DNA from: a bacterium
GTDB lineage: Bacteria; Zhuqueibacterota; Zhuqueibacteria; Residuimicrobiales; Krinioviventaceae
DNA: 64,000 nt
Assembly (NCBI GenBank): GCA_963675755.2
Contig: CAXXMD010000001.1
Span: 256,001 to 320,000 of the forward strand
Direction: 5' to 3'
This document shows, one piece after another, positions 26,642 through 62,318 of the stretch. The position numbers and the translations under genes are program-made. The notes under the pieces are model-generated. The model saw nothing but the letters and a program-made list of their open reading frames with translations, did not search any database and was not told the origin of the DNA. Positions within the stretch are counted from its first letter, which is position 1; each line of letters starts with the position of its first letter.

Positions 26642-26705
26642 CCGTTAATATTAACAATTAAATAAAAAATATTGGAATTCATTGCTGAATTGTTAAATTT
26701 CAATA

Positions 26706-26721
26706 TTGAATTCGTATTCAA
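26706..26721. promoter_or_regulatory. Candidate operator TTGAAT-N4-ATTCAA (copy 1)
   Basis: TTGAATTCGTATTCAA just downstream of TTGGAA-16-TAAATT; second copy at 31069. Confidence 0.5.
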
Positions 26722-26764
26722 AGCTATATTTGAATTGTACCCAGACACTGTCAGGAGGAACAGG

Positions 26765-33334: not shown

Positions 33335-33371
33335 TTTTTACCAGAACCAAATACCTGAAAGCGAGAAAAGG

Positions 33372-38087: not shown

Positions 38088-38090
38088 ACA

Positions 38091-42484: not shown

Positions 42485-42630
42485 AGAGTAATGCACATAC
42501 AAATGAAATTGATTTGATTATTATCCCTTTTTTATAATTGGAAATATTACAGACTGTCTTTATAATTATGAGACAGTCTGTTTTATATAGCATTTATAAT
42601 TTTTTTTATACTGAAACGAAAAGGAGCAAA

Positions 42631-44940
42631 ATGAAACAAAGTCTAATCTCCATTATGGTTGTATTTTTACTATCTCTTTTTTCTTGCAGTCAGAAAACTG
42701 AATGGATTGATTATGTTGACCCGTTGATTGGTACGGGCCCCAGTACAACTAAAAGTAATATGAAGCATGGATCTGAACATGTAAATTATGCAAATGCTCA
42801 GGTCATTCCGGCAGTTACCATGCCGTTTGGGATGACAAACTGGACTCCCCAAACCCGGGAAACTGAAAAAAAATGTAATGCGCCATTCTATTATACTGAT
42901 CCCTATATCCAGGGATTCCGGGCCAGTCATTGGTTAAGTGGATCCTGTGCACAGGATTACGGCAGTTTTACTATTATGCCGGTTACCGGTGAATTAAAAT
43001 GTGCTCCATCTGTTCGTGGTGCCCATTTTGACCAGAATGCACAAATTACATCTCCGGCGTATTATGCCGTAGAATTGGAAGATTATCATGTAAAAGCTGA
43101 AATGACAGCATCAACCCGAAGTGCAATTTTTCGTTTCACTTTTGAAAATGCAGATTCTGCATTTATTCTCATTGATACCAACAGCGATGAAGGACAAGGC
43201 TTTATTCAGGTGAATCACGAGGCAAATGAGATTGTAGGTTATAATCCTGTTCACAGACTTTATCAGGGAATTGGTAAATATGCAGGATTTAAAGGATATT
43301 TTGTGATAAAGTTCGATAAACCGTTGCAGAATTTTGGTGTTTATCAGGAGAATACGCCGAAATACAAACAAAACAATATAAAAGATGAAAACAATATCGG
43401 CGGGTTTGCCGCTTTTCAGGTTAAAGCCGGTGATGAGTTATTGGTCAAAGCCGCGTCATCTTTTACCAGTATTGAACAGGCCAGAAAAAATCTGGATACA
43501 GAAATTCCAAATTGGGATTTTGAAAAAGTACATCAAAATATTCGTGACCATTGGAATGATTTATTGGGTCGTTACGAGATCAAATCCAAAAATAAAGATG
43601 ATTATGTTAAATTCTATACATCCATATACCATTGCTATCAACAACCCAGAATTGTAAATGATGTTGATGGTACCTATACCGGATTTGCACAGGATGATAA
43701 TGTATATCAAGCTGATGGATTTAATTATTTTGACGATTTTTCCATGTGGGATACATACAGAGCATTACATCCCTTGTATACCATCATGAACACCAAAGAA
43801 ACTATTTCGATGTTAAAATCCATTGTTATGAAAGCAGAGCAGGGCGGCTGGCTGCCAATTTTCCCCATGTACAACAGTTATACTTCTGCAATGATTGGTG
43901 ATCATATGATTTCTCTGGTTGGCGATGCATATATGAAAGGAATTGATGATTTTGATGTTGAAACCGCATATAAATATATGCGTCAGAATGCGTTCGAGTC
44001 TCCCGAGTCTTTAGATGATTATGCAGATGGCAAAGGACGACGTTCTTTGGGATCATATCTTAAATACGGATATATTCCGGTTGAAGATCCGGTACTTTAT
44101 GCTTTTCATAAACGGGAACAGAGTTCACGCACACTGGAATATGCTTATGATGATTTTGTACTTGCCGAAATTGCACAAAAACTGGGCAAAACAGATGATT
44201 ATAACAAACTCCTGGAACGGGCGCAATATTATAAAAATGTATTTGATCCAAATCTCGGGTATCTGCGCGGTAAACACCAAGATGGCAGCTGGGTTAAAGA
44301 TGCGGATTATAAAAAGCCACAACGATATGTTACCGAAGCAACACCTTTTCACTATTCCTGGTATGTTCCACATGATGTAGCGGGCCTGATTGATATAATG
44401 GGTGGTGCCGATTCTTTTACAGCAAGGCTGGATACTTTTTTTGTAGAAACCCACTATTGGCATGGAAACGAACCCAGTCATCAGGTGGTGTATATGTACA
44501 ATTATGCAGGGTATCCTGAAAAAGCACAAAAGACTATCCGTAATATTTTAAAAGAAGAATATGATGTGGGCCCAGGCGGTTTGAGCGGTAATGACGATTC
44601 GGGACAAATGTCTGCGTGGTATTTGTTTTCTGCTTTAGGCTTTTATCCGGTGTGCCCGGGTGTTCCTGAATATGTAATTGGAACACCATCATTTGATATC
44701 GTAACATTAACATTGGAAAATGATCGTAAATTCAAAATTATAGCTCACAATAATTCTGATGAAAATTGTTATATTGAATCCATTAAACTCAATGGTAATG
44801 ACTATAATAAAACATTTATTACTCATAAAGATATTGTGGCAGGTGGGAAATTGGAGTTCTTTATGACTTTTGATCCCAATACGGGTTGGGGAAGTGATAA
44901 TGATTCTGTTCCTTATTCTTTGTCAAATACAATACAGTAA
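42631..44940 (+). CDS. GH92 family alpha-mannosidase, lipoprotein
   Basis: Lipobox LFSC, YVDPLIGT, SMWDTYRALHPL, TEA.PFHYSWYVPHD, YWHGNEPSH, GNDDSGQMSAWY; SD AGGAG. Confidence 0.93.
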   Translation: MKQSLISIMVVFLLSLFSCSQKTEWIDYVDPLIGTGPSTTKSNMKHGSEHVNYANAQVIPAVTMPFGMTNWTPQTRETEKKCNAPFYYTDPYIQGFRASHWLSGSCAQDYGSFTIMPVTGELKCAPSVRGAHFDQNAQITSPAYYAVELEDYHVKAEMTASTRSAIFRFTFENADSAFILIDTNSDEGQGFIQVNHEANEIVGYNPVHRLYQGIGKYAGFKGYFVIKFDKPLQNFGVYQENTPKYKQNNIKDENNIGGFAAFQVKAGDELLVKAASSFTSIEQARKNLDTEIPNWDFEKVHQNIRDHWNDLLGRYEIKSKNKDDYVKFYTSIYHCYQQPRIVNDVDGTYTGFAQDDNVYQADGFNYFDDFSMWDTYRALHPLYTIMNTKETISMLKSIVMKAEQGGWLPIFPMYNSYTSAMIGDHMISLVGDAYMKGIDDFDVETAYKYMRQNAFESPESLDDYADGKGRRSLGSYLKYGYIPVEDPVLYAFHKREQSSRTLEYAYDDFVLAEIAQKLGKTDDYNKLLERAQYYKNVFDPNLGYLRGKHQDGSWVKDADYKKPQRYVTEATPFHYSWYVPHDVAGLIDIMGGADSFTARLDTFFVETHYWHGNEPSHQVVYMYNYAGYPEKAQKTIRNILKEEYDVGPGGLSGNDDSGQMSAWYLFSALGFYPVCPGVPEYVIGTPSFDIVTLTLENDRKFKIIAHNNSDENCYIESIKLNGNDYNKTFITHKDIVAGGKLEFFMTFDPNTGWGSDNDSVPYSLSNTIQ

Positions 44941-44967: not shown

Positions 44968-45010
44968 TCCCGTCATGTCAAATTTTTGAAATGTGACGGG
45001 AGATTTATTT
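44968..45010 (+). terminator. Probable terminator hairpin
   Basis: TCCCGTCA...TGACGGGA stem followed by T-rich tail. Confidence 0.55.
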
Positions 45011-45209
45011 GTCTAATAACGGATGCTGTTAAAGTGTGTTTTTAGAAAAAACATTGAGATTTAATAAAAAATAACTATATTAAAAAATATTTATTTTATC
45101 GCAAATATATTATGTTGTTGTAATAAAGTAGCAGAGATTAGCAGGCACCTTTTCTGATAATTTAATCTGATTTGATATTATTCTCATTAAATTTTAAAAC
45201 GGATAAAAA

Positions 45210-47249
45210 ATGCGTAAAATAATTTTCTACTCTATTGTAATATTTTTTACATCAATTCTGTCAGCCGCTGATTTGACCAGGTATGTTGATCCATTTATCT
45301 GTTCGGCAGGAGATCATGGACAACTTGATCCATCTGCAAATGTTCCCTTTGGGATGATCAAATTGGGGCCCCAGACGCTTCCCGGTGGTCATACCGGATA
45401 TGATTATAATGCCAAAGAAATATCTGGTTTTACCCACACCCGCTTGATGGGAGTAGGGTGCAGTGGCGCAGGTGGAGTACTGTTAACCAAGCCAGGATTA
45501 GGTGAGCCGAATGCAGACGCCGTAGAATATCTCAAAAATAGCGAAACTGCTACTCCTGGTTACTATGCTGTTAAATTTACCAATGGCATTCAGGCCGAGA
45601 TGACAATTAATCAACATGTGGGTTTGCAGCGTTTTACTTTTCCTCAATCCGATAAATCATTTATCATGATTGATCCGGCTTCTTCAATAGAGCAGGTACT
45701 CAGTTCTGAATATAAAATTAAATCTAACCGTGAAATTACTGGTAGAATAACTGCGCGTAATAATTGTAAGTTTGGCATGTACACCAATTATTATGTTATT
45801 ACTTTTGATAAGGCATTTGATTCTGTTGAAGAAAAAGACGGCAAAGTATTTCTGGTTTTTTCTTTAAAGCAAAATGATACTGTCAACATGAGTACAGCAC
45901 TTTCTCCGTTAAGTGTTGAACAGGCCAGAGAGGATTTGTACTCTGCATTACAAAACAAGTCTTTTGATACAGTTAAAGCAGAAGCACAGCAGGCCTGGGA
46001 GAAAATTTTTGAACGGGTTGTTGTTGAGGGTAAAGAAGAGTATAAAACCTTGTTTTATACCCATCTGTATCATTCCAGTTTATCTCCGTTCAACAGTACC
46101 AGCTCTTCCGGTACGTACAGGGGAACGGACAATAAAATTTACAAAGCTGAAGGTTATACCCATTACGATTCATGGTCCATTTGGGATACATTTCGCACAA
46201 AATTTCCCCTTGTAACTTTGCTTGAACCCGGTTTGATGCGGGATTTTTGTTTGTCACTGGTTGATTTGTACAATACAGGTTTAACGTATCAGCCGAGTAA
46301 TAGTGAACCCATTGTTACCTGCCGTACTGAGCATGCATCTATAGTTTTACTGGATGCGTGGAAAAAGGGCATTCCTTTTGATTTAAAAGCGGTTTATCCC
46401 AAGCTGGTAGAAGAAACAAAACAGTTTTCTACCGATTCTCCTGATAAAAAGCTGGAAGCAGCATATGATTATTGGGGATTAGCAGAAATTGCTAAAATCG
46501 TAGGAAATGATGCTGACTATGTTAAATATTCCAAAATGGCCGGTATGTATAAAGACATCTGGGTGGAAAAATTCAAAGTCATGAATGAAAATGCAGACAT
46601 CATGCATGGTGATGGATTATATGAAGGAACACTTTGGCAGTATCGCTGGTTTGTTCCCCAGGATATTTCGGGATTGTTGGAATTGTTTGAAGGAAAAGAC
46701 AATTACACTCAAGATTTAACCTATTTTTATGAAAATGATCTTTATAATCACGGTAATCAACCGGATATACATGTGCCGTTCATGTTTGCATTCAGCAACT
46801 CACCCTGGTTATCTCAAAAGTGGGTGAATGAAATATTAACCAAAGAAACAAAAAATTATTATGGTACCCATGTGAAATGGGACAAACCTTTTGTTGGTAG
46901 AATCTATAATACCAGTCCGCAAGGCTATATTCCAGAGATGGATGACGATGATGGAACCATGTCTGCCTGGTATGTTTTTGCAGCAATGGGGCTATATCCG
47001 TATTGTGTAGGTAAACCTGAATACGTGATAACCACCCCAATTTTTGACAACATCAAGATAGATCTTGAAAATGGTAATCCGTTAGAAATTAAAACCAAAA
47101 ACTTTTCTGATGAAAATTACTATATTCAATCTGTAACGTTTAATGGAAAAAAAATAAATTCGGCAATAATTACCCACGAGCAGCTGATGGAAGGCGGCGT
47201 TCTGGAGTATGAATTGGGAAACAAGCCCAATACTAAATTATTCAAGTAA
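45210..47249 (+). CDS. GH92 family glycoside hydrolase (short divergent subtype)
   Basis: Signal peptide, YVDPFI, WSIWDTFRTKFPL, LYEGTLWQYRWFVPQD, HGNQPDIH, EMDDDDGTMSAWY. Confidence 0.9.
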   Translation: MRKIIFYSIVIFFTSILSAADLTRYVDPFICSAGDHGQLDPSANVPFGMIKLGPQTLPGGHTGYDYNAKEISGFTHTRLMGVGCSGAGGVLLTKPGLGEPNADAVEYLKNSETATPGYYAVKFTNGIQAEMTINQHVGLQRFTFPQSDKSFIMIDPASSIEQVLSSEYKIKSNREITGRITARNNCKFGMYTNYYVITFDKAFDSVEEKDGKVFLVFSLKQNDTVNMSTALSPLSVEQAREDLYSALQNKSFDTVKAEAQQAWEKIFERVVVEGKEEYKTLFYTHLYHSSLSPFNSTSSSGTYRGTDNKIYKAEGYTHYDSWSIWDTFRTKFPLVTLLEPGLMRDFCLSLVDLYNTGLTYQPSNSEPIVTCRTEHASIVLLDAWKKGIPFDLKAVYPKLVEETKQFSTDSPDKKLEAAYDYWGLAEIAKIVGNDADYVKYSKMAGMYKDIWVEKFKVMNENADIMHGDGLYEGTLWQYRWFVPQDISGLLELFEGKDNYTQDLTYFYENDLYNHGNQPDIHVPFMFAFSNSPWLSQKWVNEILTKETKNYYGTHVKWDKPFVGRIYNTSPQGYIPEMDDDDGTMSAWYVFAAMGLYPYCVGKPEYVITTPIFDNIKIDLENGNPLEIKTKNFSDENYYIQSVTFNGKKINSAIITHEQLMEGGVLEYELGNKPNTKLFK

Positions 47250-47285
47250 TCCACCAAACCGAATTGAAAAACAGGAGTATACTTT

Positions 47286-47855
47286 ATGAACCCCGCAATT
47301 AAAGATGCAATTGCCTTCCATAAACAGGCAATTGATGAATTTGAAAAAAACAGCCCGGCGTTATTACAAGAGATCGCCGATGCAATTACTAAAAGTTTGA
47401 ATAACAAAGGTACAGTTTACCTTTGTGGTAATGGTGGCTCTGCTGCCGATTGCCAGCATATAGCAGGTGAATTTGTAGGACGTTTTCGCAAAGAACGCAA
47501 AGCATTACCGGGAGTGGCATTGTCAACAGATACTTCAGTAATTACATGTCTTGGCAATGATTATGATTATAAAGATATTTTTTCACGTCAGGTTGAAGCT
47601 TTAATGGACAGCCAGGATATGTTGTGGGCATTTTCCACCAGTGGTACATCTGCAAATGTTATCAAAGCTGCAAAAGCAGCCAAAGAAAAAGGCGCCAAGG
47701 TTATAGCTTTTACCGGAAAAAGCAACAGCGAACTGGAAAAGATATCTGATTATTGTATCTGTGCAAACGCCAACTGGACCAGCACTTCTCAGGAAGTACA
47801 TCAGCTTTCTTACCATATAATATGTGATATTGTCGAACAGAACTTTGTAGAATAG
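47286..47855 (+). CDS. gmhA: Phosphoheptose (sedoheptulose-7-phosphate) isomerase-like SIS protein
   Basis: CGNGGSAADCQHIAGEFVGRF, GNDY...FSRQVEAL, STSG.S.NV, QEVH...HIIC. Confidence 0.88.
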   Translation: MNPAIKDAIAFHKQAIDEFEKNSPALLQEIADAITKSLNNKGTVYLCGNGGSAADCQHIAGEFVGRFRKERKALPGVALSTDTSVITCLGNDYDYKDIFSRQVEALMDSQDMLWAFSTSGTSANVIKAAKAAKEKGAKVIAFTGKSNSELEKISDYCICANANWTSTSQEVHQLSYHIICDIVEQNFVE

Positions 47856-47870
47856 AAATTTGAGGGAATA

Positions 47871-49775
47871 ATGAAAATTGAACGTGTCCGTGAGATCACT
47901 GAAAAAATTAAAGATGTAAAAATCGCCGTTTATGGAGATTTTTGCCTTGATGTATACTGGCCGCTTGATCCTAAAGGTGGTGAAATGTCAGTGGAAACTG
48001 GTATTCAGGCTGAAGCTGTTAGCCAGCAAAGTTATTCGCTTGGTGGCGCTTCAAATATTGTAGCAAATTTAACTGCGCTTAATCCTGCTTTGATCAAGGT
48101 AATTGGCGTAAGAGGTGACGATGTTTTTGGCCGGGAACTTGAACGTCTGTTAAAAGAAAAAAATGTAGATACCAGTGAACTGTTTATTCAAAAAGAGAAT
48201 TTTGATACATTCACTTATATTAAGCGCATTTTGGAAGATAAAGAACAACCCCGAATTGATTTTGGCTTTTTAAATAAACGATCTGCTGAAACCGATGAAA
48301 AATTATTAGCAGGTATTGAAAAAGCACTGCAGGAATTTGATATTATTATATTCAACCAACAGGTTGTAGGCAGTATACCCAACAAGGCCTTTATTGAAAA
48401 GGTCAATGAATTATGTCAAAAATATCCTGATAAAAATCTGGTGTTTGATTCACGCCATTATGGTGCCGAGTTTCACTATGTTTTGCGTAAACTGAATGAT
48501 ATTGAGGCAGGTATTTTAAATGGTGTTGAATATGAAGCGACTGATGTAATTACTGTTCAGGATGCTGAAGTTTATGCCAAGGCCCTTTATGAACGCTCTA
48601 AAAAACCGGTTGTACTGACTCGTGGTGGCCGTGGAATTCTGGTTTGTGATGAAACCGGTGTTACCGAGATTCCCGGTATTCAATTGTTAAAGAAACTAGA
48701 TACCGTAGGTGCGGGTGATACCACTATTAGTGCATTAGCACTCTGTCTGGCCGCTGGAATTGATACGGTTGATGCTGCCCGTTTTGCCAACATGGCTGCG
48801 GCTGTAACGGTACAAAAACTTTATACAACCGGAACCGCAAATGCTGAAGAAATAATGCAAATTGCGAGTGATACCAACTATTTATATCAACCGGAACTTG
48901 CCGATGATCCACGAAAAGCACAATATTACAAAGATACTGAAATCGAGTTGACATACAGTCTGGATTCCATGCAATTTGGCAGAATTAAATTTGCTGTATT
49001 TGATCATGATGGCACCATCAGTACCTTGCGTCAGGGCTGGGAAGCCATTATGGAACCCATGATGGTAAAAGCGATTCTGGGTGATCAGTATGAAACCGCT
49101 GGTGAAACCTTGTATCATAACGTTGTTCAACGTGTTCGTGATTTTATTGATCAATCTGTTGGAATTCAGACCATTTTGCAAATGGAAGCTCTTGTTGAAC
49201 TTGTTAAAGAATTTGGTATTGTACCGGAGGACCAGATTCTCGATAAATTTGGTTACAAAGAAATTTACAATGATGCATTGATGATTTCTGTTCGTAAACG
49301 TATGGCAAAGCTGGAGCGTAAAGAATTGAGCACTCCGGATTGGACCATGAAAGGTGCTGTTGAATTTTTGCAATCGATGCGTGATAAAGGCGTAACTTTG
49401 TATATGGCTAGTGGAACCGATAAAGAAGACGTTATTAACGAAGCCAAAACCCTGGGTTATGCTGACCTGTTTAATGGCGGTATTTATGGCGCAGTTGGTG
49501 ATGTATCCAAGTTTTCGAAAAAAATGCTCATTGAGCAGATCATGAAAGAGAATAACCTGCATGGATCAGAATTGGTTGTTTTTGGTGATGGTCCGGTTGA
49601 AATCCGTGAATGTCGTAAACGGGATGGTATAGCTGTAGGTATTGCAAGTGATGAATTACAACGTCATAGCCTGAATATTGATAAACGTACCCGTTTGATC
49701 AAGGCTGGCGCCCAGGTCGTCATTCCTGATTATTCTCAACGTGATTATTTGATGGATTTATTATTTAATGGTTAA
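47871..49775 (+). CDS. RfaE/HldE domain-I-like PfkB kinase fused to a C-terminal HAD phosphatase
   Basis: AVYGDFCLDVY, GGASNIVANL, DTVGAGDT, AN.AAAVTVQK..T; HAD motifs FDHDGT, ASGT, FGDGPVE; no HIGH nucleotidyltransferase motif. Confidence 0.85.
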   Translation: MKIERVREITEKIKDVKIAVYGDFCLDVYWPLDPKGGEMSVETGIQAEAVSQQSYSLGGASNIVANLTALNPALIKVIGVRGDDVFGRELERLLKEKNVDTSELFIQKENFDTFTYIKRILEDKEQPRIDFGFLNKRSAETDEKLLAGIEKALQEFDIIIFNQQVVGSIPNKAFIEKVNELCQKYPDKNLVFDSRHYGAEFHYVLRKLNDIEAGILNGVEYEATDVITVQDAEVYAKALYERSKKPVVLTRGGRGILVCDETGVTEIPGIQLLKKLDTVGAGDTTISALALCLAAGIDTVDAARFANMAAAVTVQKLYTTGTANAEEIMQIASDTNYLYQPELADDPRKAQYYKDTEIELTYSLDSMQFGRIKFAVFDHDGTISTLRQGWEAIMEPMMVKAILGDQYETAGETLYHNVVQRVRDFIDQSVGIQTILQMEALVELVKEFGIVPEDQILDKFGYKEIYNDALMISVRKRMAKLERKELSTPDWTMKGAVEFLQSMRDKGVTLYMASGTDKEDVINEAKTLGYADLFNGGIYGAVGDVSKFSKKMLIEQIMKENNLHGSELVVFGDGPVEIRECRKRDGIAVGIASDELQRHSLNIDKRTRLIKAGAQVVIPDYSQRDYLMDLLFNG

Positions 49776-49794
49776 TTAGGTTTTCAGGTGTTGA

Positions 49795-51492
49795 ATGAAA
49801 AGAAGACGTTTTTTACAACTTGCTGGAGCAGTTTCTTTAACTGTTTCCAATAGATTCGCTTTTGCATCATCTTTAACCGAGTCAGATGTGTTTAAAACAC
49901 TCGTTCGGCAAAATGATGATCTGGTGAAAAAGCTTTTACAGGACCAGGAAACGGATGCATCGCATCAATGGTATGGAGCCATTCGAAACGATAATGGTAT
50001 ACATTATCCCATATTAACGGCTAATTATATCTGCTACCTGGTCAGTGCTTTTGTTACACCGGAATCAAATTATTACAAATCCAGCGAGTTGGTTAAATCG
50101 TTGGAACTTGCTGCGAACTATATGATCAATGTAAAGCATAAAGATGGTACAATTGATCTGCTCTCTACAAACTTTCATTCAACACCGGATACCGCTTTTG
50201 CGGTGGAATGGATTGCCATTGCATATACAATTTTGGACCAATCTTCTTTTACTGAAATGAATTCGTCCAAAGATGCGTTGGGTCGTTTTTTGAAAAATGC
50301 GGGCAATGCACTGACAGTGGGAGGTATACATACGCCGAACCATCGTTGGGTTGTCAGTATGGGGTTGGCGCGTATTCACTATTTATTTCCGGATGAAAAG
50401 TATGTTAAACGCATTAATCAATGGCTGAATGAAAAGATTGATATTGATGTGGATGGACAGTACAATGAAAAAAGTACTGCTATTTATTCACCCATTGTCG
50501 ATCGTTGTCTTTTAACCATTGCACGATTGTTGGACAATACTGAATTGTTTGAACCTGTTCGCAGAAATCTTGATATGACTTTGTATTATCTACATCCCAA
50601 TGGTGATGTAGATACAACCGCATCGAGACGTCAGGATCAGGGACGGCGCATGAGTATGGCCCCATATTATTACTCGTACCGTTTTATGGCATTAAAAGAT
50701 AAAAACGGCCAATTTGCATCAATCTGTAAATTAATTGAAAATACAGCGATTGATGGATTAAAGATCGATTTGCCATTATTGATTGAAGATAAAAGTTTAA
50801 CAAAATCATTACCCAAAGAACATCCATTACCAACCCATTATGCCAAACATTTTTCCGGCTCTGAATTGGTAAGAATTCGTCGTGGGGATAAAAGTGCAAC
50901 AATTGCTGTGAACAATTCTACATTTTTCTCATTTTACAAAGGAAATGCCGCTTTGACCGGTTTACGTTTTGCTTCATCATTTTTTGGTAGAAAAGGTCAA
51001 TTCAGTGCAAACCACTTGCAAATTGAGGGGAATAAATATATATTAACAAAAAAAGTAACAGGACCCTATTATCAACCTTATCCTGTTGATGAACTACCGA
51101 ATGATGGTGACTGGGATAAAATGCCCAGATCTAATCGGCCTTTGAGCGAGATCCAAACCTTGATATCGGAAATTGAAATTGTGGAAAATGATGGTGAATT
51201 TGCTGTCAATTTTCATATCCATGGTACTGATCGTATACCGTTTGCAATTGAACTGGGTTTTCGCGAAAACGGTAAGTTAAAAGGTGTTGTTCCGGTTCCC
51301 GGTATAGAGAATGCATTTCTTTTAGAATCCGGTATGGGCTCATTCACACTTGGTGATGATACGATTCAATTTGGCTCCGGTCAGGCAAAGCATACATGGA
51401 CACAATTAAGAGGTGCAGAACCTAAACTTGAAGGTAAAAGTGTTTACATTACCGGTTACACACCTTTGCAATATACTTTAAAAATCAGTTGA
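49795..51492 (+). CDS. Tat-exported hypothetical protein, probable alpha-toroid lyase/hydrolase-like fold
   Basis: KRRRFL Tat motif; GGIHTPNHRW, DGQYNEKS..YS, helical N-half and beta-rich C-half. Confidence 0.65.
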   Translation: MKRRRFLQLAGAVSLTVSNRFAFASSLTESDVFKTLVRQNDDLVKKLLQDQETDASHQWYGAIRNDNGIHYPILTANYICYLVSAFVTPESNYYKSSELVKSLELAANYMINVKHKDGTIDLLSTNFHSTPDTAFAVEWIAIAYTILDQSSFTEMNSSKDALGRFLKNAGNALTVGGIHTPNHRWVVSMGLARIHYLFPDEKYVKRINQWLNEKIDIDVDGQYNEKSTAIYSPIVDRCLLTIARLLDNTELFEPVRRNLDMTLYYLHPNGDVDTTASRRQDQGRRMSMAPYYYSYRFMALKDKNGQFASICKLIENTAIDGLKIDLPLLIEDKSLTKSLPKEHPLPTHYAKHFSGSELVRIRRGDKSATIAVNNSTFFSFYKGNAALTGLRFASSFFGRKGQFSANHLQIEGNKYILTKKVTGPYYQPYPVDELPNDGDWDKMPRSNRPLSEIQTLISEIEIVENDGEFAVNFHIHGTDRIPFAIELGFRENGKLKGVVPVPGIENAFLLESGMGSFTLGDDTIQFGSGQAKHTWTQLRGAEPKLEGKSVYITGYTPLQYTLKIS

Positions 51493-51533
51493 TACTTAAC
51501 ATACCGTCACTCACTTAAACGAGGGAAGATGAA

Positions 51534-52811
51534 ATGAATACCACTACCGCGTCGGCAGGCGCAGCGACTTCTGGAAACAGGAGAAAGTACCTTGTACCTT
51601 TTTTATTAATGACCCTGTTGTTCTTTTTATGGGGTGCTATCGTTTCTCTTAACGATATTTTAATACCTCACCTTAAAAGCCTGTTCAACATGAATTATGC
51701 TCAAACCATGTTGATCCAGTTTTGTTACTTTGCAGCCTATTTCACCATGGCAGTTCCCGCAAGTATGATCATAGGCAAGATTGGTTATAAACGCGGTATT
51801 GTTGTTGGCTTACTCGTAGTAGGTGCGGGATGTTTAATCTTTATTCCTGCTGCATATGTTATTTCTTACGGCTTGTTCCTGTTTGGTCTTTTTGTAATGG
51901 CTACAGGTAATGTGTTTTTACAGGTTGTAGGTAATCCGTATGTTGCAATTCTTGGCCCAGCTGAAACTGCATCCAGTCGTTTGAACTTTGCACAGGGTAT
52001 TAATTCAATTGCTACCGCTTTGATGCCTTATCTTGGTGCTATTTTTATTCTGGGTGATTTTGATAACGCTGCAGATCATGCTGCATCTGTTCAGGGTCCC
52101 TATATTGTACTGGCAGGTTTTGCTGTTTTGGTTGCTATTATTTTTGCAATTCTGCATTTACCCACAATTCAAACTGAATCTAAAACCAAAGTTACTGGCA
52201 GTGTGTTGAGATTCCGTCAGCTTCGCTGGGGTGTTATTGCCCTGACACTTTATGTTGGTGCAGAGGTAACTATTGGTAGCTTTATTGTAAACTTTTTAGG
52301 CGAACCTTATATCGCCGGACTGGCAGAAAAAGCTGCAGCAAAATATATCCCCTTGTATTGGGGCGGTTTAATGGTTGGTCGTTTGTTGGGATCAGCTATC
52401 CTTCAAAAGATTAAAGCCAATGTAGTATTGGTTGTTGCTGCTATTATGTCATTTATCCTTGTTCTTGTAACTATCCTGACTCAGGGTAAAGTTGCAATGT
52501 GGTCAATCTTGTTAGTGGGATTGTTTAATTCTATCATGTGGTCTAATATTTTTGCTATGGCAATTGACGGACTGGGTGAGTATACCAATAAAGCATCTGG
52601 TATTCTGGTTATGGCACCTGTTGGTGGTGCAATTATTCCATTATTACAAGGTGTTTTGGCAGACATTCCGCAAATCGGATTGCATAATTCATATGTATTG
52701 CCTTTACTTTGTTACCTGGTTATCCTTTTCTATGGTATTAATGGATACAAACCTGGTAAAGATGAACTTGATATAAAACTTGATAGCGCCTTGAGTGCTG
52801 AAGCCGCTTAA
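51534..52811 (+). CDS. MFS sugar:H+ symporter (FucP/GluP family)
   Basis: LFFLWG...LNDILIP, KIGYKRGI, NPYV..LGP..TASSRLN.AQG.NS, YVGAEV, GGAIIP; 12 TM. Confidence 0.92.
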   Translation: MNTTTASAGAATSGNRRKYLVPFLLMTLLFFLWGAIVSLNDILIPHLKSLFNMNYAQTMLIQFCYFAAYFTMAVPASMIIGKIGYKRGIVVGLLVVGAGCLIFIPAAYVISYGLFLFGLFVMATGNVFLQVVGNPYVAILGPAETASSRLNFAQGINSIATALMPYLGAIFILGDFDNAADHAASVQGPYIVLAGFAVLVAIIFAILHLPTIQTESKTKVTGSVLRFRQLRWGVIALTLYVGAEVTIGSFIVNFLGEPYIAGLAEKAAAKYIPLYWGGLMVGRLLGSAILQKIKANVVLVVAAIMSFILVLVTILTQGKVAMWSILLVGLFNSIMWSNIFAMAIDGLGEYTNKASGILVMAPVGGAIIPLLQGVLADIPQIGLHNSYVLPLLCYLVILFYGINGYKPGKDELDIKLDSALSAEAA

Positions 52812-52823
52812 TTGTTAACCGAC

Positions 52824-52886
52824 TGTAATATTTGCAGAGCTCTGGTGCTCTGCAAATATTACATATTTTTATAATATGTAATATTT
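52824..52886. repeat. Two overlapping inverted repeats built from three alternating TGTAATATTT units
   Basis: 17-bp stem 52824-52840/52847-52863 and 14-bp stem 52854-52867/52873-52886. Confidence 0.8.
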
Positions 52887-52997
52887 ACCCCATAATATCC
52901 AGAGTTCGTCTATACATTCGGATTCTTTATTCAGTTTGATCTATAACGCGTATATTTTCAATCGTACAGAACTTTATTTAAACACTGTTAATCCTGA

Positions 52998-54194
52998 ATG
53001 AATATGCAACCATGGACAAATAAAATACCTCCTGGACGAAAAGAAGAATTGATTCTCACTTTTCATTCTGCTTTATTTGATGATATTATTCCTTTTTGGG
53101 AAAAATATTCCCCGGATACTGAATTTGGCGGATATCTTACCCGGCTTGAACGCGATGGTAAACCTTATTCCGGTGATAAAGATATGTGGATGACCGGCAG
53201 GGAAATCTGGATGTTCAGTCACCTCTATAATCAATACAAATATGAATCCCGCTGGAAGGATTATGCCAGGCATGGTCTTGAATTTTTATTGAAATTCGGA
53301 TTCAAAGATGATGATAAAATGTATTTCCGTCTGGACCGGCAAGGAAATCCCATAGCATCTTCACTCAGCTTGTTTACCAAAGTTTTTGCATCCATCGGTA
53401 TGGCGGAATACTGGAAAATTGACAACGATCCTGATCTGAAAACCAAAGCTGAAAATTTATATCAACAAATGATGCAAAAATTTGGCTTACCCAGTGATAC
53501 ACCCATGCTTGGGTATCCCATGAATGCAGAATTTCATTTACATTCACATGATATGTGCAAATTAACAGTGGCCTGGGTATTTAATGACATCTGGCCAGAC
53601 AATCAATACGAGCAGGATTGTGCGGATGCCATTACATCAATACTGAATTTGCACTGGAAACCGCAGGAAAAGGTGCTATATGAAAATGTAGCGATGGATG
53701 GCACTCCTTTGCTGCAATATCCTGAAGGCAGACTTTTTCATCCTGGTCACAGTATTGAAAGCTCGTGGATGCTGATGGAAGCTGCAGAAAAGAACAGAGA
53801 TAAGATGTTGCTGCAAACGGCCATAGATATACTACTCGCTTCTCTTGAACAGGGATGGGATAAAGAATTTGGAGGTATCCGTTATCTCACCAATGTGGAT
53901 TGGACACCCTGTCACAGTCTGGAAGCTGATTTAAAGTTATGGTGGCCGCATAGTGAAGCACTGTATGCATTAATGCTGGCTTGGGCTTTAACCGGCAGAC
54001 AAGATATTTCAGATTGGTATACCAAGGTACATGATTATACTTTTAGCCACTTTCCTGACCCGGAATATGGCGAGTGGTTCGGTTACCTGAACCGTGATGG
54101 TTCACCGGTGTGGACTGCCAAGGCTAACGGCTGGAAAGGATTTTTTCATACACCGCGTGCTTTGTTCAGATGTTACCAGTTGTTAAATAAATAA
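52998..54194 (+). CDS. AGE family (N-acylglucosamine 2-epimerase-like) epimerase/isomerase
   Basis: IIPFW...D.EFGGY, W..GR..W.FS, PGHSIE.SW, KLWWPHSEALY, GEWFGYL.R.G, KG.FH.PR. Confidence 0.9.
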   Translation: MNMQPWTNKIPPGRKEELILTFHSALFDDIIPFWEKYSPDTEFGGYLTRLERDGKPYSGDKDMWMTGREIWMFSHLYNQYKYESRWKDYARHGLEFLLKFGFKDDDKMYFRLDRQGNPIASSLSLFTKVFASIGMAEYWKIDNDPDLKTKAENLYQQMMQKFGLPSDTPMLGYPMNAEFHLHSHDMCKLTVAWVFNDIWPDNQYEQDCADAITSILNLHWKPQEKVLYENVAMDGTPLLQYPEGRLFHPGHSIESSWMLMEAAEKNRDKMLLQTAIDILLASLEQGWDKEFGGIRYLTNVDWTPCHSLEADLKLWWPHSEALYALMLAWALTGRQDISDWYTKVHDYTFSHFPDPEYGEWFGYLNRDGSPVWTAKANGWKGFFHTPRALFRCYQLLNK

Positions 54195-54209
54195 TAATCG
54201 GGAAAAGAT

Positions 54210-55532
54210 TTGAATCAATTTATAAAAATTTTAGCAATATTCATTATTGTAATGGTGCTGACTGTTGGTTGTGGTAACCAAGTTCCTAAAAGTGTGCATG
54301 TATCAGATATTGCATTGGGTTGGGCGCAAAATAGCGTGAATACTACAATTTTGCGCAAGAATTCACTGGTTACTTTTAATGATACGCAATATGCCGCTTT
54401 TTATGATTCAATTGGTCATGTTGTACTTGCCAAACGGCAATTGGGCACAGATCAGTGGCTGGTCAAGCAAACCCGCTATTCCGGTAAAATTACGGATGCT
54501 CACAATTCCATCAGCATTATGGTGGATGGTGATGGTTATTTGCACATGGCCTGGGACCATCATAATGATTCTCTGCGCTATTGTAAAAGCATTGCTCCTG
54601 GTTCACTTGATTTTACTGAAAAGCAATCCATGATTGGCAGAGATGAAGTCAAGGTAACCTACCCTGAATTTTATCGGTTACCCAACGGAGATTTGATTTT
54701 TCTTTATCGTGTAGGGAAATCCGGTGACGGCAAACTGGTTATGAATCGATATGATCTCATTAAACGGGAATGGGAACGTATACACGATAATTTGATTGAT
54801 GGAGAAGGGGAGAGAAATGCCTATTGGCAATTTGCAGTAGACTTGTACGGAACATTTCATCTGTCATGGGTATGGCGTGAAACCGGTGATGTAGCGACCA
54901 ATCATGATATGTGTTACGCAAAATCCACAGATGGAGGCGTAACCTGGATAAAGACAACAGGTGATCTGTGTCAGATTCCCATAAATAAAAACAATGCCGA
55001 ATATGCAGTTCGAATCCCACAAAACAGTGAACTGATCAATCAAACATCCATGTGTGCGGATTCAAAAGGACGCCCCTACATTGCTACTTTTTATCGTCAA
55101 GATGGAGAATCAGTACCGCAATATCATCTGATTTATCATGATGGCAATAACTGGCAAACCCGACAGGTATCTGACCGGGAGATACCCTTTTCATTAAGCG
55201 GAGGTGGGACAAAACGCATCCCTATGAGTCGCCCTGTTATTGTTGCAGATACTTTGAATAACCAGGATGCGGCATACATGCTGTTTCGGGATATAGAATA
55301 TGAAAACAGGGTAATGGTTGCAGTATGTAATGATCTGACGACGAATACATGGAAGAATATAGTATTGTCCACTTTATCTGTTGGCGCCTGGGAACCCAGC
55401 TATGATACAGAATTGTGGAAAAAAAGTAAAATTCTGCATATATTTATACAGAATTCGGGTCAAGGAGACGGAGAAAAACTGGAAGCTTTGCCATCGCAGA
55501 TGGTTAGCGTAATACAATGGAAACCAGAGTGA
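54210..55532 (+). CDS. BNR_4 beta-propeller lipoprotein, GH145/PL42-like
   Basis: TTG start, lipobox VGC; DAHNSISIMVDGDGYLH..WDHH, VTYPEFY, RNAYWQ, SWVWRET, TNHD.CYA.S.DGG.TW, IPQNSELINQTSM. Confidence 0.8.
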   Translation: MNQFIKILAIFIIVMVLTVGCGNQVPKSVHVSDIALGWAQNSVNTTILRKNSLVTFNDTQYAAFYDSIGHVVLAKRQLGTDQWLVKQTRYSGKITDAHNSISIMVDGDGYLHMAWDHHNDSLRYCKSIAPGSLDFTEKQSMIGRDEVKVTYPEFYRLPNGDLIFLYRVGKSGDGKLVMNRYDLIKREWERIHDNLIDGEGERNAYWQFAVDLYGTFHLSWVWRETGDVATNHDMCYAKSTDGGVTWIKTTGDLCQIPINKNNAEYAVRIPQNSELINQTSMCADSKGRPYIATFYRQDGESVPQYHLIYHDGNNWQTRQVSDREIPFSLSGGGTKRIPMSRPVIVADTLNNQDAAYMLFRDIEYENRVMVAVCNDLTTNTWKNIVLSTLSVGAWEPSYDTELWKKSKILHIFIQNSGQGDGEKLEALPSQMVSVIQWKPE

Positions 55533-55560
55533 TTTAACCGAAAAATCAAAAGGAAAACCT

Positions 55561-56535
55561 ATGAGCGAGAAAACATATATTGGAATTGATATTGGTGGAA
55601 CCAAAACAGCCGTATTGCTGGTTGATGAAACGGGAAAATTGATTGAACGTAAACAGTTTCAAACCTTTACAGGTAATGGCGGCTGGCAAAAAAGTCTGGA
55701 TGAAATTATTTCCATGATAAAGGAATATCAAGATCAAGCTTCTCCTGCAGCGATTGGTATCAGTTGCGGCGGTCCCCTGAACAGCAGAACCGGTATGATC
55801 TTGTCTCCACCCAATTTACCGGGATGGGATAATGTACCCATTATTGAACTTTTGAACAAAGAATTTGGTTTACCTGTTGCTCTGGAAAATGATGCAAATG
55901 CAGGTGCACTGGCTGAATGGCGTTTTGGTGCAGGCAAGGGCAGTCGTAATATGATATTTTTAACCTTTGGTACGGGTCTGGGAGCAGGACTTGTTTTGGA
56001 TGGCCGGTTATATTCCGGAACCAATGATCTGGGTGGTGAAGCAGGACACCTGCGTTTGGATGATGACGGTCCCATTGGTTTTAACAAACGCGGATCTTTT
56101 GAAGGCTTTTGCAGCGGCACCGGTTTGTCACAAATGATGGCTTTTGAACTGTTATGTCTGGCTGAAGAAATTGGCAAAGAAGCTATGCTTGAAAAATATA
56201 AAGAACCGGGCCAGGTTACAGGCAAAGATGTTGTAATATGGGCACAGGCTGGCGATCCTCTTGCGCTCAAAGTTGTTGAAAAAAGCGGTACCTATTTGGG
56301 CAAAGGATTATCGTTTTTAATTGATATTATAAATCCTGAATTGATAGTGATTGGCAGTATGGGCGTGCGCCTGGGTGACATGCTTTTTGATCCTGCCAGA
56401 AAAGTGATTGAAAAAGAAGCTATACCCGGTGCGGTTGAGGTCTGTAAAATTGTGCCCGCGGAACTGGGTGAGAAAATTGGTGATTATGCTGCATTATGTG
56501 TGGCTATCAAAGCAGAAGAAAATAGTGTAAACTAA
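55561..56535 (+). CDS. ROK family sugar kinase
   Basis: IGIDIGGTK, LENDANAGALAE, GTGLGAG, GEAGH, GSFEGFCSG; no HTH. Confidence 0.92.
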   Translation: MSEKTYIGIDIGGTKTAVLLVDETGKLIERKQFQTFTGNGGWQKSLDEIISMIKEYQDQASPAAIGISCGGPLNSRTGMILSPPNLPGWDNVPIIELLNKEFGLPVALENDANAGALAEWRFGAGKGSRNMIFLTFGTGLGAGLVLDGRLYSGTNDLGGEAGHLRLDDDGPIGFNKRGSFEGFCSGTGLSQMMAFELLCLAEEIGKEAMLEKYKEPGQVTGKDVVIWAQAGDPLALKVVEKSGTYLGKGLSFLIDIINPELIVIGSMGVRLGDMLFDPARKVIEKEAIPGAVEVCKIVPAELGEKIGDYAALCVAIKAEENSVN

Positions 56536-56561
56536 ATGTTCCTCTTGAAATGAGGTGGTCT

Positions 56562-57803
56562 ATGAAACGTTTTGCAAGCCGTTTAAATAGCAATATTGAC
56601 AATCCAAGCCGACGGGATTTCCTCAAGCAGGGAGGCATAGCTGCTTTGGGAATTTCATTATCCGCGAACCCATCTTTTGCGGTTAATACTGCACCAAAAA
56701 AACTCCGAATAGGTATAGTAGGTGGAAGGTTTGGAGCCAGTTTCTTTTTTCATGAACATCCGGATTGTATTGTTCAAGCTGTGAGTGATTTAAGGCCGGA
56801 ACGACGTGAGCACCTCATGAAAACCTACAATTGTTCAAAATCTTACAACTCTCTTGAAGAGTTGGTTAAAGACAAAGATATTGATGCGGTAGGCGTTTTT
56901 ACTGAAGGTCCTAACCATGTAAAACATGTTTTGGAATGTTTAAAACATGGCAAACATGTGATCTGTGCGGTTCCTGCCTGTTGGGCAACCCTGGATGAAG
57001 CAGAACAGTTGTATAATGCGGTAAAATCTTCCGGATTGATTTATATGATGGCTGAAACCAGCTATTATCAGCAGCACACTATATCAGCCCGCGATTTTTA
57101 TAAAAAAGGCGAGTTTGGTGAAATCTATTACTGTGAATCTGAATATCAGCATAACGGGTTGGAATCTTTATATATTGAAGATGGTAAACGGACCTGGCGT
57201 TATGGAGTAGCTCCTATGCATTACCCCACACATTGTACCGCACATTTGCTTAGTGTAACGGGTGAACGCCTTGTGCAAGTCTCCTGTAATGGATGGGGAG
57301 ATGGTGATCCGATACTAAAAGACAATCCATACAATAATCCTTTTTGGAACGAATCCGCAATGTTTACAACGAATAAAGGCCATGCCTTTCGGGTAAATGT
57401 TTGGTGGAAAGGCGCGCATTTGGGTTGTGAACGGGCCCAATGGATTGGAAACAAGATGAGTTTTTATACCAGTAATCCGGTTGGATATGGGCCAACCCTG
57501 GTTGAAACGACCAGTGTTTTGGGTAAAGACGATGCAGGATTTGCCAGAATAGAAGCCAAAAAGACGCCTTATGAACAGCCGGAATGGTGGAAAACGGATT
57601 TGTTGCCTGAACCGTTGCGTCATAACAGCGGACATCATGGATCGCATACATTTTTGACCCATGAATTTGTTGATGCTTGTTTACATGAACGCAAACCGGT
57701 TGTAGATATTCATGAGGCCCTGGCGTATACCGTACCCGGAATTGTTGCACACCAGTCCGCATTGAATGGTGGAGCAAGTAAAGCAATTCCACAGTTTGTT
57801 TAA
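56562..57803 (+). CDS. Tat-exported Gfo/Idh/MocA oxidoreductase
   Basis: SRRDFLK Tat motif, IGIVGG.FG, GKHVICAVP (EKP variant), YMMAET, HYPTH, GHHGSH; SD GAGGTG. Confidence 0.85.
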   Translation: MKRFASRLNSNIDNPSRRDFLKQGGIAALGISLSANPSFAVNTAPKKLRIGIVGGRFGASFFFHEHPDCIVQAVSDLRPERREHLMKTYNCSKSYNSLEELVKDKDIDAVGVFTEGPNHVKHVLECLKHGKHVICAVPACWATLDEAEQLYNAVKSSGLIYMMAETSYYQQHTISARDFYKKGEFGEIYYCESEYQHNGLESLYIEDGKRTWRYGVAPMHYPTHCTAHLLSVTGERLVQVSCNGWGDGDPILKDNPYNNPFWNESAMFTTNKGHAFRVNVWWKGAHLGCERAQWIGNKMSFYTSNPVGYGPTLVETTSVLGKDDAGFARIEAKKTPYEQPEWWKTDLLPEPLRHNSGHHGSHTFLTHEFVDACLHERKPVVDIHEALAYTVPGIVAHQSALNGGASKAIPQFV

Positions 57804-57821
57804 ACCAATCAAGGTAGCTGT

Positions 57822-59396: not shown

Positions 59397-59432
59397 TCAT
59401 AGAATTATGTTTTTATTGAGAAAGGCTGTACC

Positions 59433-62207: not shown

Positions 62208-62216
62208 GATATATTG

Positions 62217-62253
62217 AAAAGGATCGGTAGTGAAAAATACCGGTCTTTTTTTT
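62217..62253 (+). terminator. Intrinsic terminator
   Basis: AAAAGGATCGGTA/TACCGGTCTTTT stem plus T-run. Confidence 0.8.
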
Positions 62254-62318
62254 ATTTGCTATTCAGTATTTTTTTTAGTATGGTAAAAAATGAGTAAGGA
62301 AAGGGAAGAGAGGCGTTT

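Follow-up and report, generated by a model that had tools for sequence, protein, structure and literature searches.

A GmhA-like isomerase and a kinase-HAD fusion in a sugar-uptake operon of a Krinioviventaceae bacterium: candidate parts of a conserved sugar-phosphate module

Heptoses are constituents of the inner core of most Gram-negative lipopolysaccharides (LPS), and the biosynthesis of ADP-L-glycero-beta-D-manno-heptose (by GmhA, HldE/HldA, GmhB, HldC and HldD) is the known system nearest to the genes described here. [quoted passage not shown] We analyzed a window of 64,000 nucleotides from a bacterium of the Krinioviventaceae (assembly GCA_963675755.2, contig CAXXMD010000001.1, positions 256,001 to 320,000), in which a GmhA-like isomerase gene and a gene for an RfaE-I/HldA-like kinase fused to a HAD domain lie side by side (47286-49775) in an operon with genes for a glycosidase and a monosaccharide importer. 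An initial annotation had read these genes as a heptose pathway possibly running in reverse. The best explanation of the pair is, in our analysis, that it is a pared-down version of a conserved sugar-phosphate module of the cytoplasm. In full, the module would consist of an isomerase for manno-configured sugars (a GmhA-like SIS protein, or an AGE-like protein in other lineages) and an RfaE-I/HldA-like kinase predicted to phosphorylate the anomeric position, together with a beta-phosphoglucomutase-like HAD domain; it would usually add an enzyme of the GSU2086 family with a predicted deoxyhypusine-synthase/ornithine-cyclodeaminase fold.

All eight genes named in the initial annotation, from GH92 to ROK, were found by open reading frame (ORF) listing and family scans where it had placed them, co-oriented on the plus strand and closely spaced. 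The grouping of these genes into one set through ROK held for only five of them. The genes for the GH92 protein, the GmhA-like isomerase, the kinase-HAD fusion, a protein with a twin-arginine translocation (Tat) signal and a major facilitator superfamily (MFS) transporter form one unit (45210-52811) with intergenic gaps of 36, 15, 19 and 41 bp, whereas AGE, BNR_4 and ROK were assigned to the next unit because two hairpins bracket the first five genes. The 200 bp 3' of the first hairpin are AT-rich and contain promoter-like hexamers, with sites at 45054-45220. The features of this unit are as follows.

44969-45000, plus strand: terminator-like hairpin at the end of the upstream unit (minimum free energy -17.2 kcal/mol, z -4.25; 0 of 200 shuffles as stable).
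45210-47249, plus strand: divergent short GH92 protein of 679 amino acids, opening the five-gene unit and bearing a Sec-type signal peptide (TIGR01180, 357 bits vs a cutoff of 249.55).
47286-47855, plus strand: GmhA-like SIS_2 sugar-phosphate isomerase of 189 amino acids, cytoplasmic (PF13580, 111 bits).
47871-48887, plus strand: N-terminal domain of the fusion, a PfkB kinase nearest RfaE domain I/HldA (PF00294, 104 bits).
48888-49775, plus strand: C-terminal domain of the fusion, a C1-capped HAD domain (AF2 model from a 75-sequence alignment; predicted local distance difference test score, pLDDT, 90.1).
49795-51492, plus strand: Tat-signal protein of 565 amino acids with an RRRFLQ twin-arginine N-terminus.
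51534-52811, plus strand: predicted FucP/GluP-type MFS monosaccharide:H+ symporter, last gene of the unit (TIGR01272 gluP, 298 bits vs a cutoff of 202.55).
52824-52863, plus strand: intrinsic-terminator-like hairpin, a 17-bp stem followed by a T-run (-26.4 kcal/mol, z -7.21).

The likeness to ADP-heptose biosynthesis is found in three parts: a GmhA-family isomerase, a PfkB kinase nearest RfaE domain I and a domain of the HAD superfamily. At other loci the module also has GSU2086, a putative transient-redox enzyme that could stand in for the HldD epimerase. The isomerase matched the phosphoheptose isomerase 2xbl with an E value of 2e-43 (about 47% identity over 163 residues, by hand count of the alignment), and its QHIAGEF, TDTS, STSG and QEVH...YH motifs align with 2xbl; we take the His and Glu of QHxAGE and the Gln and His of QExH...H to be the catalytic or Zn-binding residues of GmhA. 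Among PfkB subfamilies, TIGR02198 rfaE_dom_I was the best match of the kinase domain with 141.4 bits, followed by ribokinase with 71 bits. The kinase domain matched HldA (4e84) with an E value of 3e-13 and was 26-27% identical to annotated hldE/rfaE1 genes, and the VGAGDT motif, which includes the catalytic GAGD, was kept in at least 95% of 79 aligned homologues. Both enzymes scored below equivalog cutoffs, however (TIGR00441, 183.1 vs 209.45 bits, and NF010546, 188.9 vs 276 bits, for the isomerase; a cutoff of 345 bits for rfaE_dom_I).

The HAD domain also differs from its counterpart in the known pathway, being C1-capped and beta-phosphoglucomutase-like rather than a capless GmhB. It comprises about 295 amino acids, about 130 of which form a helical cap inserted between motifs I and II. 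Its DxDGT, ASGTD and GDGPVE motifs are invariant in the 75-sequence alignment, and it shows the DxD, S/T, K and GDxxxD/E motifs of C1-capped HADs. In Foldseek searches of the model against the Protein Data Bank (PDB), the beta-phosphoglucomutases 4gib and 6hdk came first (E 3.9e-9, for 4gib, to 1e-8; template modeling score, TM, normalized to the target 0.71-0.74, with 0.74 for 6hdk); AlnB, phosphoglycolate phosphatases, BT2127 and the phosphatase domain of MtlD scored about equally, and the matches were 13-20% identical. None of the best matches listed was described as GmhB, and all were C1-capped HADs. The model thus suggests a domain that resembles a beta-phosphoglucomutase or sugar-phosphatase and is not GmhB-like.

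As further differences, the genes share a transcription unit with those for a secreted glycosidase and an importer, and the locus is without an adenylyl- or guanylyltransferase, an SDR epimerase and a heptosyltransferase. No HldD, Glyco_transf_9 heptosyltransferase or GmhB-type HAD was found among the window ORFs scanned, and no partner adenylyltransferase (RfaE domain II/HldC) among the ORFs of at least 100 amino acids scanned at 36822-64000. The initial annotation had described the window as free of adenylyl/guanylyltransferase, hldD and heptosyltransferase genes; the ORF scan agrees for the latter two, but one NTP-transferase, the only one in the window, is encoded at 716-1849. Since it is of the RmlA-long type (449 bits vs a cutoff of 320) and lies about 45 kb upstream, we do not regard it as heptose-specific. 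The ORF 716-1849 is overlapped by 59 bp by an RNase H-like ORF (190-774), and its GTG start has probably been placed too far 5', given that similarity to the family starts at residue 24-25. A search of the whole window with Rfam at the gathering threshold gave no matches, and hence no riboswitch clue to a ligand.

We scanned the fusion protein against 185,579 species genomes and found 226 relatives, from which 80 loci (L-numbers below) were kept at 48-65% identity over the full length. L001, which has a 98% identical fusion and is syntenic throughout, was set aside as the same species, and the counts given here refer to the other 79 loci. Neighboring genes were counted by tblastn because ORF calls were disturbed by long antisense ORFs in high-GC Planctomycetota loci (L020, L027, L076). 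The 80 loci span at least 8 phyla: 44 belong to Planctomycetota, 22 to Bacteroidota, 3 to Ignavibacteria and 2 to Calditrichaceae, with single loci in KSB1, Neomarinimicrobiota, Aegiribacteria, Kiritimatiellia, Victivallales, Lentisphaerota, a metagenome-assembled genome (MAG) labelled 'Clostridia' and unclassified MAGs.

Judged by sequence, the kinase-HAD fusions make up a conserved family, and their neighborhood is conserved as well. A GSU2086-family gene stands immediately beside the fusion in 56/79 loci (50 of the 62 with at least 1.1 kb upstream), an AGE-like gene is present in 37, 34 of which are Planctomycetota, and a GmhA-like SIS gene adjoins the fusion in 18. No locus of the 79 carries both an AGE-like and a SIS gene, and the two look like alternative solutions for one isomerisation step, with phylogeny as a confounding factor. 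A ROK gene 50-55% identical to that of the window was found in 9 Bacteroidota loci (in 8 of them 31-57 bp 3' of the fusion, in the other one 583 bp), and one further locus has a ROK gene at 30% identity. By sequence, the window ROK is orthologous to these ROK genes directly 3' of the fusion in Bacteroidota. An MFS gene of the FucP type occurs in 5/79 loci and is 66-70% identical to that of the window in four (L032, L050, L053, L061). Among the 44 loci whose sequence extends at least 2.5 kb to each side, just 3 showed no partner gene (GSU2086, AGE-like, SIS, ROK or MFS).

Further neighbors were annotated for 117 of 125 selected proteins from 18 loci, the other 8 being short or distal. They include ABC, SSF and MFS sugar importers, a D-lyxose/mannose isomerase (L080), aldolases of the DHDPS and DeoC types, GFO oxidoreductases, xylose-isomerase-like TIM barrels and glycoside hydrolases. 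No heptosyltransferase or HldD equivalog and no LPS genes were seen among the annotated fusion-locus neighbors. Nucleotidyltransferases in the fusion loci lie 6-8 kb from the fusion (RmlA-like in L024 and L035; rfaE_dom_II-like in L028, across a divergent AraC gene), and none was found directly adjoining it.

GmhA-like genes occur next to the fusion, or next to its parts encoded as separate genes, in 18/79 loci and in two plasmid loci (L081, L082). This adjacency spans Bacteroidota, Ignavibacteria, KSB1, Chloroflexota, Thermodesulfobacteriota and the MAG labelled Clostridia, and since it is seen again in other phyla it is not due to chance. These data support a functional tie of the GmhA-like and RfaE-like genes to sugar uptake and not to LPS assembly. 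They also bear on the suggestion that gmhA is an ordinary LPS-core gene, the fusion an unrelated kinase/phosphatase and the adjacency to GH92 and MFS without pathway meaning. The window GmhA is 41-48% identical to GmhAs named by the Prokaryotic Genome Annotation Pipeline (PGAP), with no signature separating it from them; the recurrence just described and the spacing of only 15 bp between gmhA and the fusion within a hairpin-bounded unit nevertheless make such a coincidence quite improbable.

The partner protein of the GSU2086 family has about 345 amino acids (NCBIfam 'GSU2086 family', 313 bits vs a cutoff of 250). Its model, made from 47 sequences with a pLDDT of 88.6, matched the Methanococcus maripaludis LOR/SDH (3c2q) best, followed by the cyclodeaminase domains of ArgZ and AgrE and by deoxyhypusine synthase, at TM scores of 0.44-0.51. 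LOR/SDH, the ArgZ/AgrE cyclodeaminase and deoxyhypusine synthase share the transient use of a nicotinamide-type cofactor. Weak profile matches were to TIGR00300 ('ornithine cyclodeaminase, nickel-pincer nucleotide-dependent', NCBIfam) and to ArgZ-like_C (Pfam). Of the 9 Bacteroidota loci that encode LarC, 8 also encode LarE and LarB, the exception being L056, whose sequence is truncated upstream. Seven of the nine have the order LarE-LarB-[alkaline phosphatase]-LarC-GSU2086-fusion (L011, L032, L033, L047, L050, L056, L073), and two Cyclobacteriaceae-type loci have LarE-LarB-LarC-fusion-SIS without GSU2086 (L067, L068). In Flavobacteriaceae the LarE-LarB-LarC genes immediately precede GSU2086 and the fusion, which makes GSU2086, as modeled, a candidate for an enzyme with a nickel-pincer or nicotinamide cofactor and a sugar-phosphate substrate.

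According to PMC13524815, synthesis of the nickel-pincer cofactor in the absence of LarA is found in many genomes; the paper also cites an NPAD-dependent ornithine cyclodeaminase (Desguin 2025). GSU2086 resembles the nickel-pincer enzymes named there (LarA, the NPAD-dependent ornithine cyclodeaminase and NphT) in its neighboring Lar genes, its 3c2q-like fold and its weak TIGR00300 match. It differs in that the TM scores are moderate and LarEBC genes occur without GSU2086 in L067 and L068, and the window has neither Lar genes nor GSU2086; AIRC, Ni_insertion and LarE-type domains had no match among the window ORFs scanned.

Two plasmid loci carry the parts in other arrangements. In L081 (CP069395.1, plasmid of Chloroflexota ZRK35, 1-14008), HAD, GSU2086 (386 bits), an RfaE-I-like kinase (139 bits) and a GmhA-like SIS (118 bits) are separate genes in that order. 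The operon further encodes an RbsB-type ABC sugar importer, DeoC (189 vs a cutoff of 117), two GFO oxidoreductases and a sugar-phosphate isomerase, and this supports a part for the module in the use of an imported sugar. In L082 (NZ_CP026539.1, Solidesulfovibrio carbinolicus pDCAR1, 6552-15058), an N-terminal rfaE_dom_II-like nucleotidyltransferase is fused to a C-terminal RfaE-I-like kinase, a domain-swapped HldE-like arrangement, followed by GSU2086 (384 bits), a divergent SIS and three radical-SAM genes, of which two are B12-binding; the neighbors are a NeuB-like synthase, pseF, a CMP-transferase, methyltransferases and transketolase halves. This gene content points to an uncharacterised cluster for the biosynthesis of a higher-carbon sugar. 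The best kinase subfamily was rfaE_dom_I in the window, L081 and L082. The constant core, as judged by sequence, is SIS, an RfaE-like kinase and GSU2086, and the fourth part is either HAD (importer-linked) or a nucleotidyltransferase (biosynthetic). A nucleotidyltransferase in the place of HAD would be a plausible biosynthetic mirror of the module and fits the Solidesulfovibrio cluster.

From the gene content, operon boundaries, fold assignments and synteny described above, we infer the direction of flux, the substrate and the roles of mutase and epimerase. We tentatively favor, while holding it at somewhat under an even chance, a nucleotide-free Leloir-like funnel that would convert an imported manno-configured sugar, with heptose as the leading candidate, to sedoheptulose-7-phosphate. 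Periplasmic enzymes would free a manno-configured monosaccharide, and the MFS transporter would bring it into the cell. The HldA-like domain would add a beta-phosphate at C1, and ROK may add a terminal phosphate to give a 1,n-bisphosphate. GSU2086, where present, would epimerise the ring-locked sugar phosphate via transient oxidation. The HAD domain would then act as a beta-mutase that carries the phosphate from C1 over to the terminal carbon, or it would remove the C1 phosphate; the beta-anomer formed by HldA-type kinases would suit a HAD of the beta-mutase type. Finally, GmhA would convert the aldose phosphate to a ketose phosphate, which would enter the pentose-phosphate pathway or glycolysis.

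Such a scheme resembles the maltose/trehalose phosphorylase and beta-phosphoglucomutase route and the Leloir pathway in its anomeric activation, the transformation that follows and the transfer of phosphate to the terminal carbon; beta-phosphoglucomutases are the top fold matches, and ROK accompanies the genes. Here, however, an ATP-dependent HldA-like kinase would take the place of a phosphorylase or GalK, no nucleotide sugar would be involved and the mutase role is putative. D-glycero- or L-glycero-D-manno-heptose is the leading candidate substrate on sequence grounds, because the isomerase and the kinase are both nearest heptose enzymes and because three unrelated isomerase families for manno-configured sugars alternate beside the fusion. 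A hexose epimer of mannose is a possible substrate as well.

The earlier proposal of a heptose pathway in reverse therefore needs modification. It held in that the genes are wired to sugar uptake, and it explains the link to an importer, but a simple reversal would need neither the kinase nor the HAD domain. The specific route from MFS through ROK to GmhA was not sustained, since it leaves the conserved kinase-HAD fusion, and the GSU2086 genes that adjoin most fusions, without a role.

Several observations weigh against a catabolic funnel. Within the window itself, tblastn with two GSU2086 proteins gave a best E value of 3.7, which means that the epimerase step is either missing here or encoded elsewhere. 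If ROK and GmhA were enough to process D,D-heptose, there would be no need for the fusion. Joining a kinase to a phosphatase-like domain is more usual in biosynthesis or bisphosphate control than in catabolism, and the fold likeness of the modeled HAD domain cannot separate a mutase from a phosphatase. The gene content of L082 is clearly that of a glycan-biosynthesis cluster. In the 44 Planctomycetota loci, the trio of AGE-like gene, GSU2086 and fusion stands beside thrS, infC, rplT and pheS, and no importer was seen. GH92 genes lie within 10 kb of the fusion in just 5/79 loci, which leaves the proposed release of heptose by GH92 unsupported rather than refuted; as to the conserved GH92/MFS/ROK synteny that had been expected, ROK (10/79) and MFS (5/79) do recur, but GH92 is as sparse as stated and the AGE gene of the window has no orthologue in the 79 loci.

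The isomerase itself is ambiguous. Fusion-linked SIS proteins of type A (in the window, L048, L059 and L061) are canonical-looking and keep the motifs, and that of L059 meets the gmhA equivalog cutoff (212.2 vs 209); type B, from Bacteroidota, is 211 amino acids long, carries an insertion of 26 residues and deviates in the TDTS and GNDY motifs. The window GmhA is 41-48% identical to PGAP-named GmhAs and 39-45% identical to fusion-linked type A proteins, and pairwise identities separate no fusion-linked GmhA subfamily. Because it is equally near to ordinary GmhAs and to fusion-linked ones, it could by sequence be a housekeeping copy, a further point against the funnel.

In a rival, biosynthetic explanation, GmhA, kinase and HAD would run forward, as in the GmhA-HldA-GmhB sequence, from sedoheptulose-7-phosphate to beta-heptose-1-phosphate or an epimer for an envelope or secreted glycoconjugate. 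The nucleotidyltransferase would be encoded elsewhere, and the place of the genes in a foraging operon would come from salvage or co-regulation. The order of the chemistry matches the ADP-heptose route, the enzymes are nearest GmhA and RfaE-I, and a phosphatase of the HAD type is typical as a final step of biosynthesis. The pDCAR1 triad, which is joined to an rfaE_dom_II-like nucleotidyltransferase and lies within a glycan cluster of the NeuB/PseF type, and the Planctomycetota loci amid housekeeping genes without importers point the same way. Yet no nucleotidyltransferase stands next to the fusion (the nearest in the fusion loci being 6-8 kb off), no heptosyltransferase or HldD equivalog was seen there, and the HAD is C1-capped and not of the GmhB type. 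The fusion is also repeatedly co-oriented with importers and a free-sugar ROK kinase. Chloroflexota and Clostridia normally have no LPS, and the split form occurs in the former and the fusion in a MAG labelled as the latter. We regard the biosynthetic explanation as rather unlikely.

A far-reaching version of the catabolic funnel would make the module the first catabolic pathway for LPS-core heptose, operating in sediment and marine glycan degraders: anomeric kinase, C6 epimerisation by GSU2086, beta-mutase-like HAD and GmhA would lead from imported L,D- or D,D-heptose to sedoheptulose-7-phosphate, and the same set with a nucleotidyltransferase in place of HAD would be a hitherto unseen biosynthesis that epimerises heptose ahead of its nucleotide activation. 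The carriers would be Planctomycetota, Bacteroidota, Ignavibacteria, KSB1, Chloroflexota and others, and GSU2086 would provide a scaffold not seen before for binding a nickel-pincer or nicotinamide cofactor. In this full form we consider the proposal unlikely.

A hexose pathway is improbable. It supposes that GH92 enzymes supply mannose, ROK forms mannose-6-phosphate and the GmhA-like protein is a phosphomannose isomerase, while the fusion interconverts mannose-1,6-bisphosphate and mannose-1-phosphate, either replacing phosphomannomutase at the expense of ATP or supplying the mutase cofactor. The chemistry of GmhA is the C7 analogue of phosphomannose isomerisation; there are four GH92 genes in the window; the insertion and the altered TDTS and GNDY motifs of type B SIS suggest a changed substrate; and mannose/lyxose isomerase and AGE-like isomerases take the place of SIS at other loci. 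Mannose, however, needs just a hexokinase and a phosphomannose isomerase, so that GSU2086, kinase and HAD would be unexplained. Moreover, the linkage of the fusion to GH92 is weak, the SIS of the window is of the canonical GmhA type, and RfaE-like kinases give the beta-anomer, which is unused in GDP-mannose synthesis. Least probable of all, to a degree that we give it very little weight, is a regulatory fusion like PFK-2/FBPase-2 that sets the level of a sugar 1,n-bisphosphate activating or priming other enzymes: a kinase and an opposing phosphatase-like domain are indeed conserved in one polypeptide across phyla, but the fusion is widely coupled to isomerase and GSU2086 in operons, the split form in L081 implies that fusion is not essential, and no target enzyme is evident.

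The glycosidase at the head of the five-gene unit was rightly described as divergent in the initial annotation. Its N-terminus reads MRKIIFYSIVIFFTSILSA, and both the N-terminal (PF17678, 169 bits) and the catalytic domain (PF07971, 349 bits) are present, the latter split into three stretches; the corresponding score of its upstream neighbor is 569 bits.

42538-44940, plus strand: canonical GH92 alpha-mannosidase of 800 amino acids, upstream neighbor of the unit (Pfam GH92, 569 bits; TIGR01180, 567 bits).

The closest solved relatives of the divergent protein are CcMan5 (2xsg, E 2e-90) and BT3130 (6f8z, E 7e-83). It resembles these GH92 alpha-mannosidases in scoring above the family cutoff, and differs in being shorter and in having a catalytic domain in three Pfam pieces. 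In the alignment its LYEG stands at the position of LYQG in CcMan5; the Glu of LYEG is presumably the general acid, and CcMan5 is, we assume, a mannose-1-phosphate 'uncapping' enzyme. An uncapping role for the divergent protein was provisionally dropped in view of LYEG vs the LYQG of CcMan5. A link to sulfated mannan, with mannose-6-sulfate as a phosphate mimic, was likewise dropped: the main text of the diatom-mannan paper PMC13063451 mentions no kinase, isomerase, MFS, heptose, epimerase or phosphatase.

The Tat-signal protein is probably periplasmic. It had no match in Pfam (even at E<=5), in NCBIfam or among PDB sequences; in the ESM Atlas it was linked to 'hypothetical protein' clusters at 0.99, with a weaker lead at 0.95 to heparinase II/III-like or ulvan-lyase clusters. 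Since its only relative among the 80 fusion loci is in L001, it lies outside the conserved fusion module. The next unit begins with the AGE, BNR_4 and ROK genes, followed by GFO, GH28-like and GH63-like genes up to a hairpin.

52998-54194, plus strand: AGE-family epimerase/isomerase nearest N-acylglucosamine 2-epimerase, first gene of the unit (PF07221, 175 bits; NF052547, 348 vs a cutoff of 600).
54210-55532, plus strand: BNR_4 beta-propeller protein resembling the BT3686 alpha-L-rhamnosidase (PF15892, 311 bits; NF052497, 642 vs a cutoff of 700).
55561-56535, plus strand: ROK sugar kinase (PF00480, 188 bits).
56550-62207, plus strand: remainder of the unit, with a GFO/IDH/MocA oxidoreductase, a GH28-like and a GH63-like gene, ending at a hairpin at 62216-62251.

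The AGE gene of the window has an orthologue only in L001 among the 80 loci; those classed as AGE-like at other loci share 22-28% identity with it and are nearer cellobiose 2-epimerase. The Bacteroides nanLET/RokA-type route consists of an AGE-family epimerase, a ROK kinase and an MFS transporter, and the AGE, ROK and MFS genes here resemble it, with uptake, 2-epimerisation and phosphorylation of a free sugar. The present locus differs in having no sialate lyase, a rhamnosidase-like BNR_4 propeller instead of a sialidase and a ROK of the fusion-linked Bacteroidota kind.

Other parts of the window are also rich in genes for glycan breakdown. At 56550-63017, the oxidoreductase, with weak matches to glycoside 3-dehydrogenases, and a DUF1080 '3-keto-disaccharide hydrolase' gene flank the GH28-like and GH63-like genes, a mix that suggests an oxidative (3-keto) route of glycoside cleavage. 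A set of corrinoid methyltransferase genes (22588-26600: a GntR/LacI-type regulator, a URO-D/MtaA-like protein with a thioredoxin-like tail, CobW and a B12-binding protein) lies directly upstream of a GH92 gene (26672-29020), and a second MtaA-like gene stands at the end of the window (63027-63998). The corrinoid set suggests demethylation of O-methylated sugars in mannoside breakdown. MtaA-like genes were also seen near GSU2086 and the fusion in 4/79 loci (L036, L041, L052, L075). On the minus strand at 11651-20720, two DUF5916/CBM9 proteins flank a GH92 gene, with a plus-strand HEAT-repeat sulfatase gene between them. A TonB-dependent receptor is encoded at 33237-35582, and no SusD-family match that would complete a SusC/SusD-type pair of a polysaccharide utilization locus (PUL) was found among the window ORFs scanned.

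Between an LolCDE-like FtsX/ABC pair (36822-38726) and the canonical GH92 gene, the ORF 38744-42484 encodes a 1246-amino-acid protein with PQQ/BamB-like beta-propeller repeats and a C-terminal malectin domain. Two adjacent minus-strand ORFs of about 460 amino acids (8677-10074 and 10141-11511) have no family match above threshold; each shows a weak sub-threshold match to one short helical Pfam model near residue 30 (E 0.03-0.1), and they may be paralogues.

The statement that no such pathway was known to the initial annotation is in keeping with a search of the full-text literature, which, without proving that none has been published, found no paper on heptose utilization, catabolism, degradation, salvage, scavenging or heptosidase, supplements and about 1.7 million PubMed Central articles lying outside the search. 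In the same literature, phosphoheptose isomerase was not paired with GH92, mannan or PUL among the matches listed, and no mention of GSU2086 was found in the search. The parts come from known superfamilies; what sets the locus apart is a set of heptose-type phosphate-handling enzymes that look rewired to sugar uptake, in company with an uncharacterised partner family.

If the heptose-type reading holds, the importer-linked enzyme set would be a first handle on the recycling of heptose from bacterial necromass. Whatever the substrate, the fusion family, with its 226 relatives, and GSU2086 form a widespread operon-level unit to which no function has been assigned. The LarEBC genes beside GSU2086 in Bacteroidota mark a candidate further nickel-pincer family acting on sugar phosphates. 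Cultured carriers, such as Cerina litoralis F89, Flavilitoribacter nigricans DSM 23189 and Agaribacillus aureus BMA12, allow these possibilities to be tested.

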